Positions 1-7,478 are shown, numbered from the stretch's first letter. The stretch: 7,478 bases of DNA from Candidatus Nanopusillus sp. (GCA_046533775.1 JAWDOO010000014.1:1-7478); one strand, 5' to 3'. Notes: generated by a model from the letters alone, not told the origin. Program-made: numbers and translations.

Positions 1-39
1 GAACAAGAAATTTTAAAGAAATTGGGAATTGAAGTGTAA
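1..39 (+). CDS. 3' end of an unidentified upstream gene (partial; start lies left of the window)
   Basis: Frame 1 is open from nt 1 and reads EQEILKKLGIEV, then TAA at 37-39. The last A of the stop is the first base of the pheT ATG (TAATG, 37-41), matching the tight coupling seen elsewhere in the window. Twelve codons are too few to assign a product. Confidence 0.35.
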   Translation, partial: EQEILKKLGIEV

Positions 40-1697
40 TGGTTGTTTTAGATGTATCTTTAAATGAATTATATAAACTATTAAATAAAAATTTATCTGA
101 AGAAGAATTAAATGAATATTTATTAAATATAAAATGCGAATTAGATGAAATTGAAGGAAATAATGCAAAAATTGAAGTAAAAGATTTTAATAGAATTGAT
201 TTATATAGTTTATCCGGAATTGCAAGAGAATTAAGGGGAATATTAAATATTGAAAAAGGTATCCCAAAATTTGAAATAAAAGATTCTAATTACGATTTAA
301 TTGTTGATAAAGAAATATTGAATGTAAGACCATATATTGTTGGTGCAGTTGTTAAAAATGTAAAATTAAATGAAGATAGATTAAAAGATTTAATACAATT
401 ACAAGAAAAAATATCACAATCTTTTGGAAGAAATAGACAAAAAGTTGCAATTGGAACACATAATTTTGATCTAATTAAATTTCCTGTTTATTATAAATTA
501 ACGGATCCTGAAACAAGATTTATTCCTTTGGGATTTGATAAAGAATTATCTTTTAAAGAAATTTTAGAAAATACAGAAGCTGGTAAAAAATATTCATATA
601 TACTAAATAAATATAATAAATATCCAATATTAATTGATTCGAATAATAATATTATTTCATTTCCACCAATAATAAATTCTAATAAAATTGGAAGATTGGA
701 TATTAATACAAAGAATATTTTTATAGATGTTTCTGGTACAGATTTAGAAAAAATATTATTAGCATTAAATGTAATTGTATTAACATTAAAAGATTTTGGA
801 GGAGAAATATATTCAATTAATATAATATATCCAGATAAAAAAATTAAAACACCAGAATTAAAAGTTATTAAAAAGGAAATGGATCTAAATAAAATTAAAA
901 AATATTTGGGAATAGAAATAGATAATAATAAAATTGTTGAATATTTAAATAGAAAAAGAATGAATGCAAAAATTGAAAATAATAAATTAATTGTTGAATA
1001 TTTAAATTATAGAGATGATATATTATCTGAATATGATATAATTGAAGAAATATTAATTTCTTATGGATATAATAATTTAAAACCGAAAGAAATTAAAATA
1101 TATACAAAGGGAGAATTAAGTAAGGAGAGAAAAATTATGAATAATATAAGAAAGATAATGGTTAATATGGGATGTATAGAAATATACACTCCAATATTAT
1201 CTAATAAGGATATAAATAATTTATTAAATGAAGATAAGGAAATTATTGAATTAATAAATCCGGCATCATCATCTTATAATTCAATTAGAGTATATTTATT
1301 ATCATCTTTCTTACAATTATTATCTGAAAATAATGAATTAAAATTCCCTGCAAAAATATTTGAACTAAATAGAGTTTCATATATTAAAAATAATAAAATT
1401 ATTGAAGATTTAGATTTATTATATATTTATTCTGATTATGAAGTTTCTGTAAATGATTCATTAAGAGTATTGAAAAGATTATTTAAAGAATTAAGAATTG
1501 ATTTTGATATAAAAAATTCGAATCATAAATTTTTAATAGATGGAAGACAAGGAAATATACTTGTAAATAATGAAAATATGGGATGGATTGGGGAAATTGA
1601 TCCAAATATATTAGAAAAATTGAGTATAAAATATCCATTAACTGGTTTTGAAATAGGTATAAAAGAATTAATAAAATATATTAAATATGATATCTGA
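39..1697 (+). CDS. pheT: Phenylalanine--tRNA ligase beta subunit, archaeal/eukaryotic type
   Basis: The 552-aa ORF has the length and motif order of archaeal PheRS beta. Motifs seen: DFNRIDLYSLSGIAREL (cf. DRPDLLS.EGIAR), VRPYIVGAVV, LQEKISQSFGRNRQKVAIGTHNFD (B3/4 editing-domain signature LQEK....GR.R..VAIG.H), ISFPPIINS, FIDVSGTD, YRDDIL..YDIIEEILISYGYNN (B5 region), NPASSSYNSIR, PAKIFELNRV and FLIDGRQGNI..GWIGEIDP. The consensus is recalled from memory. The stop is TGA at 1695-1697. Confidence 0.93.
   Translation: MVVLDVSLNELYKLLNKNLSEEELNEYLLNIKCELDEIEGNNAKIEVKDFNRIDLYSLSGIARELRGILNIEKGIPKFEIKDSNYDLIVDKEILNVRPYIVGAVVKNVKLNEDRLKDLIQLQEKISQSFGRNRQKVAIGTHNFDLIKFPVYYKLTDPETRFIPLGFDKELSFKEILENTEAGKKYSYILNKYNKYPILIDSNNNIISFPPIINSNKIGRLDINTKNIFIDVSGTDLEKILLALNVIVLTLKDFGGEIYSINIIYPDKKIKTPELKVIKKEMDLNKIKKYLGIEIDNNKIVEYLNRKRMNAKIENNKLIVEYLNYRDDILSEYDIIEEILISYGYNNLKPKEIKIYTKGELSKERKIMNNIRKIMVNMGCIEIYTPILSNKDINNLLNEDKEIIELINPASSSYNSIRVYLLSSFLQLLSENNELKFPAKIFELNRVSYIKNNKIIEDLDLLYIYSDYEVSVNDSLRVLKRLFKELRIDFDIKNSNHKFLIDGRQGNILVNNENMGWIGEIDPNILEKLSIKYPLTGFEIGIKELIKYIKYDI
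933..1007 (+). repeat. Perfect 18-nt in-frame direct repeat (attgttgaatatttaaat) at 933-950 and 990-1007 inside pheT
   Basis: Read directly from the sequence. The two copies start 57 nt (19 codons) apart and each encodes IVEYLN, within ..NNKIVEYLNRKRMNAKIENNKLIVEYLNYRDD.. Confidence 0.6.
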
Positions 1698-3087
1698 AAT
1701 AGAATATAAAGTATTATCTATATTAAATAATAATTGGAAAAATTTAGATGAGATTTCAAATGAATTAAATATTGATAAATATAAGGTATTAAGAACTTTA
1801 GGATTTTTAAAGGAAAAGGGATTAATAGAATTAAGAGAAGAAAAAATAAAAAAATATGAATTAACAGAAATTGGAAAAAAATATTTAAAGGAAGGATTAC
1901 CTGAAAGAAGATTATTAAATTTATTAAAAGAAAAGAAAGAAATAAATTTGGAAGAATTAAATAAATATTTTGATAAAGATGAATTATCCTTTTCTTTAGG
2001 ATTTTTAAGAAAAAATGGAGCAATAAAGATTGAAAATGGAAAGGTAATATATATTAAAGATATAGAAACATATGAAAGATATTTAGAAAATATTGATGAA
2101 AATACAATAAAATTATTTAAAGGAAGAAAAGGAATTATTGAAGAAAAAGAAGAAACAATTTATTATGCAAAAATAAATGATAAAGGAAAAGAAATATTAA
2201 AAAATTATAAACCAGAAGAATATATTGAAAAATATACAAAAGAAGTTATTGATAAAAAGATATATAAAAATAAGAAATTCAGACCTTATGATATAAGGAT
2301 AAATATTGAAGAAGAAAATATTGGAAGGTATAATCCATATTTAGAATTTTTAGATAAAATAAGAGAAGAATTAATATCAATGGGATTTAAAGAAATGGAT
2401 AAATATAGTATAATATTATCACATTTTTGGGATTTAGATTGTTTATTTATACCACAAGATCATCCTGCAGGAGATATTTCAATAATGGATGCATTTTATA
2501 TTAAAAATATACAATATATAGAAGATTTTCCAAAAGATTTATTTGAAAATGTTAAAAATACACAATTAAAATATTTTAAAATATTTGATGAAAATATTTC
2601 AAAAAGATCTATGTTAATATCTCATGATACTGCTATATCTGCAAGAACATTATTAAATGCCGAAAAACCTGGTAAATATTTTTTAATAGAAAAAGTATTT
2701 AGATATGATACAATTGATGCAAAACATTTTATTGAATTTAATCAACTTGAAGGAATTGTTTTAGATGATAATTTAACATTTTTAGATTTATTAGGAATAT
2801 TAAAAGAATTGGTATTAAATGTTGTAAAAGCGAAAAATATAAAATTCTATCCAGCATATTTTCCATTTACAGAACCTTCGGTTGAAGTATATGCCGAACA
2901 TCCAAAATTGGGATGGATTGAAGTTGGAGGTGCAGGTGTATTTAGGGAAGAACTATTAAAACAATTTAATATAAATTATCCAGTACTGGCCTGGGGTCTT
3001 GGTGTTGATAGACTTGCAACAATATATTTGAATATTAATGATATAAGGGAATTACATACTAGAAATATTAAAAAATTACAAGAATAA
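1687..3087 (+). CDS. pheS: Phenylalanine--tRNA ligase alpha subunit, archaeal/eukaryotic type
   Basis: The 466-aa ORF has an N-terminal helix-rich region typical of archaeal/eukaryotic alpha subunits (..YELTEIGKKYLKEGLPERRLLNLL..). The class II catalytic core carries motif 2 (VFRYDTIDAKHFIEFNQLEG) and motif 3 (GAGVFREELL...AWGLGVDRL). The ATG at 1687 lies inside the pheT 3' end (ATGATATCTGA), giving an 11-nt overlap. Confidence 0.95.
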   Translation: MISEIEYKVLSILNNNWKNLDEISNELNIDKYKVLRTLGFLKEKGLIELREEKIKKYELTEIGKKYLKEGLPERRLLNLLKEKKEINLEELNKYFDKDELSFSLGFLRKNGAIKIENGKVIYIKDIETYERYLENIDENTIKLFKGRKGIIEEKEETIYYAKINDKGKEILKNYKPEEYIEKYTKEVIDKKIYKNKKFRPYDIRINIEEENIGRYNPYLEFLDKIREELISMGFKEMDKYSIILSHFWDLDCLFIPQDHPAGDISIMDAFYIKNIQYIEDFPKDLFENVKNTQLKYFKIFDENISKRSMLISHDTAISARTLLNAEKPGKYFLIEKVFRYDTIDAKHFIEFNQLEGIVLDDNLTFLDLLGILKELVLNVVKAKNIKFYPAYFPFTEPSVEVYAEHPKLGWIEVGGAGVFREELLKQFNINYPVLAWGLGVDRLATIYLNINDIRELHTRNIKKLQE

Positions 3088-3097
3088 ATATCTTTTT

Positions 3098-3844
3098 ATG
3101 GATAATAATTTTAATGATATAATATTGAATTTTTCAAAAGATTTAATTGAAAAAGTTGATGGATTGGTAAAATCAATTGTTTTATTTGGATCATATGCAG
3201 AAAATAAAGAAACTGAAAAATCAGATATAGATTTATTAATAATAATAGATGATATATATGCAAATGATTTAAATATAACAGTTCCATTTTATTTTGATAA
3301 TTTAAATAAATTATTAGCAGATGAAAAATATAAAAAAATCCATGTAACAACATTAACATTATCAAAATTTTGGGAAATGATACTAAATGGGGATCCATTA
3401 GTTTTAGATATATTAAGAAAGGGTGAAGCAATAATAGATCCTGCAGGAATCTTTGGTTCCCTTAAAAAAATGCTAGAAAATGGACTGATAAAAACTTCAC
3501 CAGAATATTTAGAAATAATGAAAAAAAGAGCTGAAGAAGGGATAAATTATGCTAATTTAATGTTAATAAAGGCTTTTGAAAGTCTATATAATTCAGTTGT
3601 AACAATTTCTCAATATTATTTAATTAAAAATAATATAAATATATATAGTCCAGAAGATATATTGAATAAATTTGAAGAATTAAAAAGAAAAAGAAAAATT
3701 TCTACTGAAATTTATAATTATTATAAGGAAGTTTATGAATATATGAAGAAAATAGAGCATAGAGAAATTAAAAATATTGATCTGGATTTATTAAAAGAAT
3801 TTTTAGAAGAATTTGAAAAATATAAAGAAAAATTAAATATTTAA
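3098..3844 (+). CDS. Pol-beta-superfamily (minimal) nucleotidyltransferase fused to a C-terminal all-helical, HEPN-like domain; substrate unknown
   Basis: Residues 25-52 read KSIVLFGSYAENKETEKSDIDLLIIIDD. This is the canonical G-S ... D-x-D nucleotidyltransferase signature (G31-S32, D43/D45; nt 3188-3232), preceded by a hydrophobic strand. The C-terminal ~130 aa are predicted helical from K/E/L periodicity. No R-x(4-6)-H HEPN RNase motif is present. Confidence 0.75.
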   Translation: MDNNFNDIILNFSKDLIEKVDGLVKSIVLFGSYAENKETEKSDIDLLIIIDDIYANDLNITVPFYFDNLNKLLADEKYKKIHVTTLTLSKFWEMILNGDPLVLDILRKGEAIIDPAGIFGSLKKMLENGLIKTSPEYLEIMKKRAEEGINYANLMLIKAFESLYNSVVTISQYYLIKNNINIYSPEDILNKFEELKRKRKISTEIYNYYKEVYEYMKKIEHREIKNIDLDLLKEFLEEFEKYKEKLNI

Positions 3845-3845
3845 A

Positions 3846-4562
3846 ATGGAATATAAATTAATTGGACATGGTGCAGAAGCAAAGATATATTTAATTGAAA
3901 GTGATAAAAAAGAGAATGATAGATATATATTTGAACTTAATAAAGATTTTTTAAATAAATTAGAAATTGATTCTGAAGAATTTAAAATTGAAAATGATAA
4001 AAATAAAATAGTATTAAAATATAGATATAAGAAAAAATATAGAAATGAATTAATTGATAAAGAATTTAGAAAATATAGAACTAGAATTGAAGCAAAAATA
4101 TTAGAAAAATTATATAATTATATTAATGTACCTAGATTATTATATAAAAATGAGGAAAATGGAATTATTGTAATGGAATATATTGAAGGATATAATTTAG
4201 CAAAATATTTAGAAAAATTAAATTATGAAGAAATATTATATAATATAGGAAAATATATAGGATTAATCCATAAAAATAAAATTGTCCATGGAGATTTAAC
4301 TACTGGAAATATGATATATAATAATGGAAAAATATATTTTATTGATTTTGGATTAAGTTTCTTTTCTAATAGAATAGAAGATTATGCTGTAGATTTACAT
4401 TTATTTAAAGAATTATTTGAATCAAATCATTGGAGAATTTCTGATAAATTTTCTTTAATATTAGAAGGATATAAAGATAGTTTTCCAGAAAAATATGAAG
4501 AAGTTTTTCATAGATTAAAGATTGTAGAATCTAGGGGTAGATATAAATCAATATTATTTTAG
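3846..4562 (+). CDS. bud32: KEOPS complex kinase/ATPase Bud32 (Kae1-associated kinase), stand-alone form
   Basis: Motifs seen: a glycine-loop equivalent LIGHGAEAKIY, VLKYRYKKKYRNELIDKEFRKYRTRIEAKIL (cf. K.R..K.YR...LD..l...Rt..Ea), the catalytic loop HGDLTTGNM (res 148-156), IDFGLS (DFG, res 166-171), EDYAVDLHLFKE and a C-terminal VESRGRY tail. Each is characteristic of archaeal Bud32. The stop is TAG at 4560-4562. Confidence 0.9.
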   Translation: MEYKLIGHGAEAKIYLIESDKKENDRYIFELNKDFLNKLEIDSEEFKIENDKNKIVLKYRYKKKYRNELIDKEFRKYRTRIEAKILEKLYNYINVPRLLYKNEENGIIVMEYIEGYNLAKYLEKLNYEEILYNIGKYIGLIHKNKIVHGDLTTGNMIYNNGKIYFIDFGLSFFSNRIEDYAVDLHLFKELFESNHWRISDKFSLILEGYKDSFPEKYEEVFHRLKIVESRGRYKSILF

Positions 4563-4623: not shown

Positions 4624-4806
4624 ATGGCAACATACATATGCCCAAGCTGTCATTCAACAAATATAGTACCATTATTTGCAAAAGATAATAGTTGGGTATG
4701 TTTAGATTGTGGATATCAGGGCCCTGCACAGTTAATAAATAAAGATCTAGAATATTTTTGGAACGAATATGAAAAAATTGAAAATATAAATAAGGTTAAG
4801 AAATAA
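4624..4806 (+). CDS. Small zinc-ribbon protein (60 aa), function unknown
   Basis: The protein has C6-x2-C9 ... C26-x2-C29 (ICPSCH ... WVCLDCGY), a four-Cys zinc-ribbon pattern, followed by an acidic helical tail (DLEYFWNEYEKIENINKVKK). The first ~120 nt are visibly less AT-biased than the surroundings, consistent with constrained coding. It sits after the promoter-like spacer and 9 nt upstream of the next gene. Confidence 0.6.
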   Translation: MATYICPSCHSTNIVPLFAKDNSWVCLDCGYQGPAQLINKDLEYFWNEYEKIENINKVKK

Positions 4807-4815
4807 ATATTTTTT

Positions 4816-5538
4816 ATGTATGATTTCTGTTTACCAGATAATAATGAAGAAGAATTAGCAAGTGAATATTATAAAAATAAGATAAAAAATGTTGTTTTTT
4901 GTTATGAAGTTTTTGATAAAAGTGATTTAAGATATTTTAAATTAAATAATATATTATATTATAAGAAATTAAATATATTTTATTGTGCATTAATAAATAA
5001 TGAAGATTTTAAAAAATCTTTAGAAATTGCAAATGAATTATTCTACTCTGATAAATATTATAACGATTTAGTATTTATTATTGGAAGAGATTTAAATTAT
5101 AATGATAAAATTTTAAGTAAATATTTTTTAAATGGAATATTTGATCCAATTAAATATGATAAAAAATATATTTTTAGAGGAATAAATTATGTAAATATTA
5201 AAAGAATAAAAGAAAATAATTTATCAATTCTTTTTTCAATGAAGAATTTGATTAATGATATAGAAAAATTTTATACAACTAAAAAATTCTTGGAATTTGC
5301 TCAAAAGAAATATTTAAATATTCTTATAGGATCCTTTGCAGAAAATAAAAATGAAGTTCCAAATAGATATCATATATATTCTTTTTATAAAGTCTTAGGA
5401 ATTTATTATAGTTTAAATTATTTAAATAAAATATTTAGAGAACAAATAATTAGAATAAGATTGGCAAAGAGAAAAGATTATTTTACAAAAGGATTTTATA
5501 TAATCTCTTATCCATATCAAGATTGTAGAGAATATTAA
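4816..5538 (+). CDS. Divergent RNase P protein component 3 (Rpp30/Rnp3)-like, PHP/TIM-barrel family
   Basis: The 240-aa ORF is collinear at motif level with archaeal Rpp30 sequences as I recall them. MYDFCLP corresponds to the N-terminal f.D....p. NGIFDPI..(x9)..GINYVNIKRIKENNLSILFSMKNLIN corresponds to vDilS.P......GIDHVLA+la..n.VAiE.nf..LL. FLEFAQKKYLNILIGSFAENKNEV.NRYHI..F.KVLG corresponds to l+lak+y.vp.viSsdA....e.R.P.DL......lG. Several normally conserved positions are replaced (GIDH becomes GINY). The call is tentative. Confidence 0.5.
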   Translation: MYDFCLPDNNEEELASEYYKNKIKNVVFCYEVFDKSDLRYFKLNNILYYKKLNIFYCALINNEDFKKSLEIANELFYSDKYYNDLVFIIGRDLNYNDKILSKYFLNGIFDPIKYDKKYIFRGINYVNIKRIKENNLSILFSMKNLINDIEKFYTTKKFLEFAQKKYLNILIGSFAENKNEVPNRYHIYSFYKVLGIYYSLNYLNKIFREQIIRIRLAKRKDYFTKGFYIISYPYQDCREY

Positions 5539-7478
5539 GGCGGCCAGGGATTTTCGGATCCTGTATAAATTGAAGGCATTACACCATTTGGAGGATATGC
5601 TCTAGCAACAACCCATTCAACATATTGGTATGATTCGGCTCCACCAGTTCCTGCACCAATTTCTAATGTTGGATATTGATAAGGATTATAATTTAAATTA
5701 TAATAAGTATATCCATTATTATTTATATTATATGTATCTAATAATGTTAAAGGAGCCCATTCTTGATTAGAATTATATATATAATATCCAGTTTGAGTAT
5801 AAGATGTATTAATAAACATATATGAATAAACTGTTCCACCAGAAGTTGGGAAAGATGTTTGATTTAATATACTATTTGTTACTGCAGATTTTAGATATGT
5901 TGCTGGACCACCAGGCCAATATTCAAATTGTACAAATGTAGATAAATTAGATGCAGGCGCACAACCTCCATCAGTAGATCCAATACTAGTTAAATATAAT
6001 TGATTATTTGTATTTCCAAATAATGCTATTACATTTTCATCTGCACTTTGAGTGTAATACCAAGCTTCCTCAACAATTAAAGGCATTTCTGGAATATTTC
6101 CATTATTTTGAGGTAAAATATAAGTACCTTCACATCCTTGATTGTTTATCATTTCAATACCATTTGAAGTTATTGTTGGAGAAAAAGATCCAGAATATAT
6201 ATATCCTGTCCAACTATCAAATGTATTATTAAAATATCCATATGCTATAAATGTATAATTTCCATTATCATATCCTGAAATTACTTGAGGAGAAGCACCA
6301 ACATAAGGATAATATTGTGAATAATAATTTGTACTATAATTTCCAATTGCCATATAAATTGTAACATTACCATTAGCAGGAATTCCGTTGGGTATATTTA
6401 TCCACCATACATCACAATATGTATTTCCATAATTTAATTGTCCTTCATACCATGAATAAAATAATTGCCCATTATTTGGATTAAAGAACATTACATTTTG
6501 TCCATTTGGATTTATTTGATTAAATAATGTTGCATTATTTATATATGCAAAATTATTACCAATATTAATTGTTCCATTACATATTGCAATATCTTGTTGG
6601 AAAGGTTCTGGAGTTGGAATATTTTGATTATTATATAATGTTATTGGAACATAATATTGTATTGGTAAATTATTAATTGGTGTACATATTTCATTACCCA
6701 AAGATTCTAAACAAAAATATAAATCATCATTATTATATTGATAATATCCAACAATTTGCTGACCTGGATAAATTAAATAACTATTAGAAGATATATTAAA
6801 AGTATTTCCAAATGATGGTATATTATAATTATCATAATATATCTTATTTAAATTAATTGGACATATATCATTATTAATTATATTTACTGATATAATATTA
6901 TTATTCAATTGAGCATTTGATATATTTAAAAGGTTTACAGAAATTCCATTTAACATTTTTTGAACACTTAGAGATTTTATTTCTCCATTAATACATTCAT
7001 AATTATTTAAATATTGAAAAATCACATTTCCTTCCAAATTATATAAATTATTTAAATAATTATCATTTATAGTAAAAATATTTTGTGGATAAAATATAAC
7101 ATAATATGGTAAATTACCAGTTCCTTCAAATTGATTATTAAAATATGGATTATATACTTCATATCCATTAAATATACAGTATCCAATATTAGAAGAACTT
7201 ATAGAATAATTATTTATTATTTCAAATGCTACAAAATTATTTGCTGCATATGAAGGTAAGAAATTATAAACATCATCTATTATAATTACATGTGTTGAAT
7301 TAAAATAATTTGGGACTTGTATAATATTATATGAACAATTATAATAAACAGTAAATGGGATTAATGTAGATTCATACAAATTTAATATATTTTCAAATAA
7401 ATCATTTCCATATAATAATTTATATATTTCTCCATATTGTGGGAAAGTATTTGAATAAAATTGAAATTCTTTATCTAA
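5535..7478 (-). CDS. Large Asn/Tyr-rich, Lys/Arg-depleted, Cys-containing putative extracellular/surface protein (5' end outside the window)
   Basis: The long minus-strand ORF ends at TAA (complement of 5535-5537). The ORF track starts it at a TTG (7377-7379). I translated the 33 in-frame codons from 7380 to 7478 and found no stop (..LDKEFQFYSNTFPQYGEIYKLLYGNDLFENILN-LYESTL..), so the gene continues beyond the window. By my count the 614 listed residues contain 100 Asn, 72 Tyr, 10 Cys, 4 Lys, 1 Arg and 1 His. Confidence 0.85.
   Translation of the reverse strand, partial: LDKEFQFYSNTFPQYGEIYKLLYGNDLFENILNLYESTLIPFTVYYNCSYNIIQVPNYFNSTHVIIIDDVYNFLPSYAANNFVAFEIINNYSISSSNIGYCIFNGYEVYNPYFNNQFEGTGNLPYYVIFYPQNIFTINDNYLNNLYNLEGNVIFQYLNNYECINGEIKSLSVQKMLNGISVNLLNISNAQLNNNIISVNIINNDICPINLNKIYYDNYNIPSFGNTFNISSNSYLIYPGQQIVGYYQYNNDDLYFCLESLGNEICTPINNLPIQYYVPITLYNNQNIPTPEPFQQDIAICNGTINIGNNFAYINNATLFNQINPNGQNVMFFNPNNGQLFYSWYEGQLNYGNTYCDVWWINIPNGIPANGNVTIYMAIGNYSTNYYSQYYPYVGASPQVISGYDNGNYTFIAYGYFNNTFDSWTGYIYSGSFSPTITSNGIEMINNQGCEGTYILPQNNGNIPEMPLIVEEAWYYTQSADENVIALFGNTNNQLYLTSIGSTDGGCAPASNLSTFVQFEYWPGGPATYLKSAVTNSILNQTSFPTSGGTVYSYMFINTSYTQTGYYIYNSNQEWAPLTLLDTYNINNNGYTYYNLNYNPYQYPTLEIGAGTGGAESYQYVEWVVARAYPPNGVMPSIYTGSENPWPP
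5580..6659 (-). other. DUF2341-like plus ConA/LamG-like beta-sandwich region of the large protein (residues ~241-600 of the listed ORF)
   Basis: Four stretches match the DUF2341 consensus as I recall it. They are YYVPITLYNNQNIPTPEPFQQDIAI (cf. yr.pItI.n......l.nfqv.i.l), NGQNVMFFNPNNGQLFYSWYEG (cf. dg.DiRF.d.dg..L.ywiE), CDVWWINIPNGIPANGNVTIYMAIGN (cf. a.vWVkvp.i.a.g..tIymYYGN) and the terminal YVEWVVARAYPPNGVMPS (cf. vDwvrvRky..peP). Not verified by any search. Confidence 0.5.

Follow-up and report, generated by a model that had tools for sequence, protein, structure and literature searches.

The single minus-strand gene in a 7,478-nucleotide (nt) stretch of DNA from Candidatus Nanopusillus sp. 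(GCA_046533775.1, JAWDOO010000014.1:1-7478; the whole stretch is called the window below) encodes what is, on its sequence, an exported protein of ~675 amino acids (aa) from a Nanopusillus/Nanobsidianus-type nanoarchaeon. Its C-terminal half ends in a domain with a predicted lectin fold, and alignments show divergence and the replacement of cassettes to be concentrated, with sharp limits, in this lectin half. How DPANN ectoparasites find and hold their hosts is an open question, and we know of no attachment protein in this group that has been identified experimentally. The present gene offers a concrete candidate, an apparently exported lectin-fold head that is the sole sharply differing sequence between 95%-identical genomes. 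We therefore regard its product as a good candidate for the host-cell recognition molecule of a parasitic hot-spring nanoarchaeon. Its most likely function is that of a variable host-glycan-binding adhesin, a reading towards which we lean by a combination of sequence, structural models and analogy. The parts of the gene are as follows, with residues numbered on the 647 codons in the window:

5535..7478, minus strand: coding region of the surface protein, 5'-truncated by the window edge; 647 codons plus stop codon (5535-5537), open to the window end
6657..7478, minus strand: lineage-specific N-terminal domain, residues 1-274 of 647; Asn/Tyr/Ile-rich, with 6 conserved Cys
6273..6656, minus strand: divergent DUF2341 beta-sandwich, residues 275-402, beginning YYVPITLYNNQNIPTPEPFQQDIAICNG; assigned from a weak Pfam match, homologues and an all-beta model
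5604..6272, minus strand: ConA-like (L-type-lectin-like) beta-sandwich, residues 403-625; hypervariable cassette, flanked by conserved YDNG and RAYPPNG
5538..5603, minus strand: conserved C-terminal tail, residues 626-647, with the YPPNGVMPS motif; no hydrophobic anchor

Extent, composition and export signal

No stop codon interrupts the reading frame over the 647 codons that reach base 7478; the window edge thus truncates the gene at its 5' end. The 614-aa length used in an initial annotation of this DNA came from an internal TTG in a mechanical list of open reading frames (ORFs), which is not the true start. The residues that the annotation had counted in those 614 aa were recounted exactly (100 Asn, 72 Tyr and 10 Cys, or 16.3% Asn and 11.7% Tyr), the six neighbouring proteins having 9.1% Asn and 7.2% Tyr. 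The strongest compositional signal had been left out of it: Lys and Arg together account for 7 of the 647 residues (1.1%), versus 15.5% in the neighbours. N-x-S/T sequons occur 14 times, with ~13 expected from the Asn and Ser/Thr content, so that their density adds nothing beyond composition. In family alignments, conservation reaches 90% or more at eight of the 10 Cys, six of them in the N-terminal half and two in DUF2341. No hydrophobic segment was found anywhere in the 647 aa, which bears out the absence of a C-terminal hydrophobic anchor noted earlier. G+C content is 0.29-0.31 in the region of the DUF2341 and lectin-fold unit (residues 275-647, the module below); since this rise is confined to codon positions 1 and 2 and G+C at position 3 stays at 5-8%, we attribute the rise to amino-acid content and do not take it as a sign of foreign origin.

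To recover the missing 5' end we used orthologues. A search of 5.8 billion proteins yielded 307 matches, of which all the named ones belong to Nanopusillus, Nanobsidianus or the unclassified Nanoarchaeota archaeon YN1, all of them hot-spring nanoarchaea. Thirty full-length orthologues (628-703 aa) start with M[AV]RSQLYLY and a hydrophobic run (e.g. MARSQLYLYTIVVLLLILFYFVSNLDL), followed by LDKEFQFYS from orthologue residue 28; the window protein begins at this last motif, and the window thus lacks 27 codons. In the orthologues these codons encode a 4-residue basic leader (MARS) and a hydrophobic helix (Kyte-Doolittle 19-residue mean of 1.7-1.8), with at least 17 hydrophobic residues following the MARSQ/MVRSQ start in 30 of 30 such full-length sequences. 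As judged from these orthologues, the off-window N-terminus is an export or anchor signal, which supplies the secretion signal or transmembrane segment for which the full N-terminus had been left to be checked. The complete protein would then consist, in order, of the basic leader and helix, the lineage-specific Asn/Tyr-rich domain of ~270 aa, the DUF2341 beta-sandwich, the ConA-like beta-sandwich and the YPPNGVMPS tail.

Domain assignments

The N-terminal domain had no match in Pfam, NCBIfam, a PDB sequence search or PHROG, and a homologue search with the N-terminal half returned only 5 orthologue fragments. With relatives among orthologues only and a mean AlphaFold predicted local distance difference test score (pLDDT) of 36.6, it is as unrecognisable as first described. 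Its identity is 82-94% among close orthologues and 61% in YN1.

The boundary that had been drawn at about residue 241 agrees with the start of the conserved module at residue 275 of 647, which is residue 242 in the earlier numbering. Against DUF2341 (PF10102), for which the Pfam gathering cut-off is 23.4 bits, the target scored a sub-threshold 12.8 bits (E 0.17) over residues 326-383 (window 6330-6503; profile positions 2-55 of 84). The target had no matches in NCBIfam, and the PDB sequence search gave a chance-level match only (E 0.07). A protein with the same N-terminal half and an 80%-identical DUF2341 segment (P0030) passes the Pfam cut-off at 26.4 bits. We searched residues 275-647 with HMMER against 1.84 billion representative sequences, yielding 364 relatives, 107 of them at E ≤ 1e-10. 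Among 37 distant homologues aligning over most or all of the module, 21 have DUF2341 at E ≤ 1e-3 (best 1.4e-14), and homologues P0151, P0155, P0183, P0210, P0228 and P0249 pass the DUF2341 cut-off at the aligned position. Distant relatives with names at NCBI include a “DUF2341 domain-containing protein” of Conexivisphaera and a “LamG-like jellyroll fold domain-containing protein” of Micrarchaeia. The DUF2341 assignment of the initial annotation therefore holds through homologues that pass the cut-off at the matching position, although the direct Pfam score of the target falls short of it.

We modelled residues 275-647 with AlphaFold2 from an 80-sequence alignment, resulting in two all-beta domains with a mean pLDDT of 74.8. 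The DUF2341 domain has a pLDDT of about 67-87, and most 10-residue blocks of the lectin-fold domain lie at 74-94. A Foldseek search against the PDB gave 105 matches at E ≤ 1e-3, and all of the 50 listed are L-type lectins (VIP36, ERGIC-53, Emp46p and legume lectins), with E-values of 3e-7 to 2e-5 and a probability of 1.0; their target template-modelling scores are mostly 0.5-0.63, and the best matches are VIP36 and ERGIC-53. No match to Laminin_G_3 or related Pfam families was found in the target, nor in 36 of the 37 distant homologues. Of the ConA/LamG-type call made earlier, the fold is thus retained, through the model and its Foldseek matches to L-type lectins, but a Pfam Laminin_G assignment is not. 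Modelling supports a ConA-like jelly-roll fold for residues 403-625.

The tail is modelled poorly (pLDDT below 50 at module residues 355-373), and three of its prolines (P355, P356 and P361 in module numbering) are invariant across homologues down to 27% identity. The YPPNGVMPS motif has the counterpart PPNNVMPSI in a protein of Sulfolobus virus SMV1. Its strict conservation could reflect a linker, a processing site or a recombination anchor.

A sharply bounded hypervariable cassette

To locate divergence, syntenic regions from three genomes (Nst1, N. stetteri AB-777_F03 and N. acidilobi 7A) were each aligned with the entire window, and DNA identity was computed in 200-nt intervals over 7.4 kb. 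Outside positions 5601-6400, identity is 92-98% in nearly every interval, with two intervals against 7A dipping to 90%. Within 5601-6200 it is 72-86% against Nst1 and AB-777_F03 (90-91% at 6201-6400) and 39-54% against 7A (75% at 6201-6400); 7A carries a replacement cassette of a different class.

Non-synonymous and synonymous divergence (dN and dS) were estimated by the Nei-Gojobori method. In the lectin segment dN is 0.15-0.17, versus 0.014-0.028 in neighbouring genes (6-10x), dS is 0.27-0.44 versus 0.11-0.30 (mostly 0.11-0.24), and dN/dS is 0.38-0.63 versus 0.06-0.17. That dS is raised as well points to alleles that are older and recombined, and not only to faster amino-acid change.

Among 31 full-length orthologues sharing the N-terminal half, the identity of the lectin segment is 56-79% in 23 and 16-22% (non-alignable, replaced) in the other 8. 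At least 10 classes can be told apart among the segments between YDNG and [AS]YPPNG; that of the window, with 115 members, is the commonest. The window cassette is 79-80% identical to those of paralogues with Sec, pilin or MRLQSE N-termini, and at most 80% (median 67%) identical to those of its own orthologues; the DUF2341 segment, unlike the cassette, tracks orthology. Within the class of the window, variation, insertions and deletions are concentrated in about seven loop segments, and the strands are conserved; variable loops lie at module residues 150-160, 171-177, 202-208, 219-232, 247-254 and 336-341. In Nanobdella aerobiophila MJ1, three dispersed pilin-type paralogues (L038, L040 and L046) are 97-100% identical in DNA over the first ~450 nt and drop to ~40-50% in the cassette, an arrangement that looks like a constant 5' region kept by gene conversion with differing 3' cassettes.

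Two mechanisms of variation were considered. Mutagenesis by a diversity-generating retroelement was rejected, as it does not fit a mismatch spectrum without adenine bias (A in 40% and 31% of cases, with an A content of 36%); moreover, no reverse transcriptase or template repeat was found among the annotated neighbours, and the differences include insertions, deletions and whole-cassette swaps. Recent gene conversion within N. acidilobi 7A was not seen, the best paralogue match to its cassette having 83% DNA identity. The 7A orthologue (L026 6500-6580, ~274.7 kb), besides its other cassette class, has a 1-nt frameshift at codon 481/482, in ATGGGTTTATAA, and is listed as two genes, Nps_01545 and Nps_01550, the latter matching Nst1_194 and not the syntenic Nst1 gene. 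This frameshift may reflect genuine inactivation of the gene, phase variation or an error in sequencing.

A module common to a multigene family and to viruses

The DUF2341 and lectin-fold unit is, from its distribution among predicted proteins, a module that recurs in several genes of a genome, joined in each to another export or anchor N-terminus: many proteins with N-termini unlike that of the target contain it at 70-80% identity. These N-termini are pilin-type (MKSISPIIATIL), Sec-type (MKLLKIFIFGL...YSQG, followed directly by one or two modules), MRLQSE-type, or of other kinds. Pilin-type paralogues (P0083 and Nanobdella L038) pass the TIGR02537 profile (archaellin/type IV pilin N-terminal domain) and resemble the Sulfolobales Ups pilin UpsA over nearly the full length of UpsA (E 1e-18); because the score is below the equivalog cut-off, we treat this as similarity and not as membership.

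Scanning genomes for the module located it at 52 loci, none of them outside Nanopusillaceae. At least six module genes are present in N. acidilobi 7A, together about 15 kb or ~2.5% of its 606-kb genome, a large investment for a genome of 0.6 Mb; YN1 has at least five loci with substantial module matches, and Nanobdella five. Module genes are placed singly among housekeeping genes, outside pilus operons, and no pilus genes were found near the paralogues. One 7A locus (L009, 522-535 kb) holds three consecutive Sec-signal genes (Nps_03070, 03075 and 03080), each with two modules of different classes; two of them encode 1052 and 1215 aa, and the two complete genes share identical first 35 residues. 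In multi-module proteins YPPNGVMPS precedes the next domain.

The family also extends to viruses, with a relative in a Sulfolobales virus providing a link to viruses of the hosts. In a Foldseek search against predicted viral structures, the whole two-domain module matched proteins of crenarchaeal hot-spring viruses, among them a 1311-aa protein (33% identity, E 2e-21), the SBRV1 DUF2341 protein, the SEV1 signal-peptide protein, TTV1 TPX, the SPV2 structural protein and the SBFV3 “putative lectin”. The 1551-aa protein of SMV1 (CDF81337), which has a signal peptide, contains the module at residues 302-633 (35% identical over 97% of the module), with the cassette class of the window and a PPN-VMPSI tail. 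The module further matches phrog_7548 (E 2e-19), and an IMG/VR scan with family motifs gave no relatives.

Proposed function

As an adhesin, the protein would be held at the cell surface by its N-terminal helix, either as a membrane anchor or, after cleavage at R-S↓Q (the arrow marks the cleavage site), as a pilin-like subunit. An acid-adapted, probably N-glycosylated stalk would present the lectin head, whose variable loops may bind glycans or glycoproteins of the surface layer (S-layer) of the crenarchaeal host, and recombination with paralogous cassettes together with fast amino-acid change would retune binding specificity. An adhesin or host-attachment factor had been suggested in the initial annotation; this suggestion is strengthened by the pilin-fused paralogues, by the hypervariability of the lectin cassette and by the homologue from a host-lineage virus, although we still infer the role. 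An S-layer-associated protein, also suggested there, is neither favoured nor contradicted.

Several published observations are in keeping with it. DUF2341 proteins are predicted pilus adhesins in archaea (PMC4858521), and nanoarchaeal “hypothetical external” surface proteins have a high density of non-synonymous single-nucleotide polymorphisms (PMC6142677). Lectin-like surface proteins have been proposed for host recognition in Nanobdella (10.1101/2023.10.27.564410), the surface of the host Acidilobus binds ConA (PMC4935971), and Ups pili read S-layer N-glycans species-specifically (PMC7064770).

Other observations weigh against an adhesin. The N-terminus is taken from orthologues at ≤86% identity and lies off-window, orthologue N-termini match no pilin hidden Markov model (TIGR02537, Pilin_N or UpsA), and the target has no adjacent pilus-assembly genes in the syntenic loci examined. 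Sequence identity to real lectins is only ~10%, and the ConA-like fold also hosts non-lectin functions. The dN/dS ratio, raised as it is, remains below 1. Finally, proteomics did not detect the 7A orthologue (Nps_01545/01550), whose gene carries a frameshift in the deposited N. acidilobi genome. That proteome covered only one third of proteins, and the S-layer protein, which lacks tryptic sites, was missed as well. With 7 Lys and Arg in 647 residues the target would be nearly invisible to trypsin-based proteomics, so its non-detection is weak evidence; the near-blindness of the method to such a protein is also a practical warning.

More tentatively, and as a possibility well short of probable, we propose that host recognition in Nanopusillaceae may be combinatorial. 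Recombination would pair a small set of constant modules for export or for the stalk (the N-terminal domain of the target itself, UpsA-like pilins and Sec-exported multi-module proteins) with at least 10 interchangeable lectin-head classes, from a pool shared with viruses of the same crenarchaeal hosts, and the cassette present at the locus would set the host glycan pattern to which the cell can attach. If true, a molecular determinant of host range would for the first time be known from a DPANN archaeon, and parasite and virus would draw on one receptor-binding toolkit.

Alternative explanations

The alternative that survives best, which we hold as a possible but doubtful account, is that the protein is a type IV pilus component. 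MARS↓Q would be a class III signal cut by prepilin peptidase, and the protein, together with the product of the gene upstream of it (described below), would form part of a pilus or sit on it as a tip adhesin or large minor pilin. On this account the anchoring of the proposed adhesin is specified further, and its function is not contradicted. In target orthologues and in the upstream gene alike, a 3-4-residue leader with Arg at -2 and a small residue at -1 precedes ~20 hydrophobic residues, and true pilin-domain paralogues of the same genomes have K/R-S at the equivalent site (e.g. MKS↓ISPII). PibD cleaves leaders of only 3-4 aa (PMC4307647), Methanococcus pilus loci contain two large DUF2341 proteins predicted to be tip adhesins (PMC4858521), and two type IV pilus systems and an archaellum are found in Nanoarchaeota (PMC6142677). 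The profile searches speak against it, since neither the orthologue P0001 nor the upstream protein matches TIGR02537, Pilin_N or UpsA, as does the gene order, no ATPase, TadC or peptidase gene lying nearby in the syntenic loci. The orthologue start itself (MARS-QLYLYTIVVLLLILFYFV) resembles the class III signal pattern but lies off-window, and its Ser at -1 is non-canonical, falling outside the FlaFind rule.

An envelope protein of the nanoarchaeon itself, structural or protective (e.g. an S-layer-associated coat), is in our view unlikely. Escape from nanoarchaeal viruses or from other threats that target the surface, and not host binding, would then account for its variability. The surface-type composition with its many sequons would suit such a protein, lectin-fold domains are also predicted within the putative Nanobdella S-layer protein, hypervariable loops and raised dS fit balancing or arms-race selection of any kind, and the homologous modules in viruses could reflect mimicry or capture. 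However, the predicted N. acidilobi S-layer protein is a different gene (Nps760) from the target orthologue (Nps_01545/01550), the target has neither a C-terminal anchor nor a known S-layer motif, and many paralogues fuse the module to pilin N-terminal domains, which would project it outward rather than tile a lattice.

It is quite improbable that the ConA-like domain is a jelly-roll enzyme of the glucanase or glycanase type that trims host surface glycans to open a contact site. Glycoside hydrolases do belong to the ConA-like superfamily, and an invariant Glu-Glu pair on a conserved strand (PLIVEEAWY) could be read as catalytic, but the pair is replaced in the SMV1 homologue (VIASWWY), the top structural matches are all non-catalytic L-type lectins with no hydrolases among them, and no glycoside-hydrolase family was matched in Pfam or NCBIfam. 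Wholesale replacement of the cassette would also be unusual for an active site. A Sulfolobales virus virion does hydrolyse glycans, an activity attributed to a protein of unrelated fold (PMC12042106).

Least credible by far, and already disfavoured, is a decaying, non-functional remnant with a composition shaped by AT-rich drift: the frameshifted, two-gene 7A orthologue and its absence from the proteome would fit, but the frame runs uninterrupted through 647 codons here, at least 30 orthologues from many samples are full length, dN/dS (0.2-0.6) is well below 1, beta-strand cores and Cys are conserved, and Lys/Arg depletion is opposite to the effect of AT drift in the neighbours.

Comparison with known systems

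Large secreted archaeal proteins with DUF2341 (PF10102), such as arCOG03508 of the Epd type IV pilus locus in Methanococcus, are predicted to be pilus-tip adhesins (PMC4858521), and the Epd-locus DUF2341 proteins are required for transformation (PMC10133366). The target shares with the Methanococcus proteins the order of DUF2341 and jelly-roll, large size, an N-terminal export signal, the placement of two large genes side by side and the predicted adhesive role. Unlike in those proteins, its DUF2341 taken alone is below the Pfam cut-off, its gene lies outside a pilus locus, its N-terminal domain of 270 aa is unique, and the cassette that forms its lectin half is hypervariable and exchangeable among the members of a multigene family.

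Residues 403-625 share their predicted fold with L-type lectins (VIP36, ERGIC-53, Emp46p and plant lectins; Foldseek probability 1.0, target template-modelling score 0.55-0.63), from which they differ in having ~10% identity, no sequence-family match and another cellular context. Closer in lineage are Nanobdella aerobiophila MJ1_0179 and the lectin domains of MJ1_0160, MJ1_0076 and MJ1_0691, proposed as host-recognition factors (10.1101/2023.10.27.564410). The points in common with the target are related organisms (Nanopusillaceae relatives), ConA-like domains known from structure prediction only, an N-terminal helix and the proposed role. The parts of that report consulted contain no account of DUF2341, cassette structure, a paralogue family or viral homologues, and its locus tags were not matched to the five Nanobdella homologues found here.

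UpsA of the Sulfolobales Ups pili mediates species-specific recognition of S-layer N-glycans through a variable pilin region (PMC7064770). Paralogues of the target have an UpsA-like N-terminal domain, and the concept of a variable surface region reading glycans on a Sulfolobales-type envelope is common to both; the N-terminus of the target itself, however, is not detectably UpsA-like, and its variable part is a separate 220-aa lectin domain and not a pilin loop. The viral proteins (SMV1 CDF81337, phrog_7548, SBRV1, SBFV3, SEV1, SPV2 and TTV1 TPX) are homologous in the two-domain module, but unlike the target they have other flanking domains and are annotated “conserved archaeal viral protein”. 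Compared with known DUF2341/ConA-like archaeal surface proteins, what is new in the target is the combination of a unique N-terminal domain with an exchangeable hypervariable lectin cassette common to paralogues and to viruses of the host lineage.

Gene order and neighbouring genes

The window has a G+C content of ~20% and, besides the target, its only minus-strand gene, contains six genes on the plus strand:

39-1697, plus strand: PheRS beta
1687-3087, plus strand: PheRS alpha
3098-3844, plus strand: nucleotidyltransferase
3846-4562, plus strand: RIO/Bud32-type kinase
4624-4806, plus strand: zinc ribbon, 60 aa
4816-5538, plus strand: 240-aa ORF, convergent downstream neighbour of the target, included for context only

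The 3' ends of the 240-aa ORF and the target overlap by 4 nt, with no intergenic terminator. The ORF had no match in a Pfam search; its syntenic orthologue in N. acidilobi is annotated as RNase P/MRP subunit p30 (Nps_01555, arCOG00307).

A JGI contig and the complete YN1 genome have the same gene order: SecF on the opposite strand, a gene of 601-605 aa, the target, and then the convergent 240-aa, 60-aa and kinase genes. The 601-605-aa gene, located in the orthologous loci beyond what corresponds to the window end at 7478 (L001 6194-8011; L002 6206-8011), overlaps the start of the target by 11 nt in two species. Because of this overlap, the two genes probably form one operon and would likely be co-expressed. 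The upstream product begins MRSFNYLVEIILVISLILIFL, that is, MRS and a hydrophobic run, an N-terminus of the same type as in the target, and its residues 290-400 match Laminin_G_3 weakly (E 1e-3). Between close genomes this gene shows 91-93% conservation, and no hypervariable part was seen in it.

Three minor observations concern the other genes. In YN1 the kinase and nucleotidyltransferase genes are separated by two inserted genes, one for a major facilitator superfamily transporter and one of 219 aa (L002 11690-13823), both absent from the window (junction at 3844-3846). The nucleotidyltransferase of N. acidilobi 7A is annotated as two genes (Nps_01570/01575), and of its 248 aa tblastn matched only 146. 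PheRS beta and PheRS alpha have 11 nt in common (1687-1697), the same length as the overlap between the target and its upstream partner in the orthologous loci.

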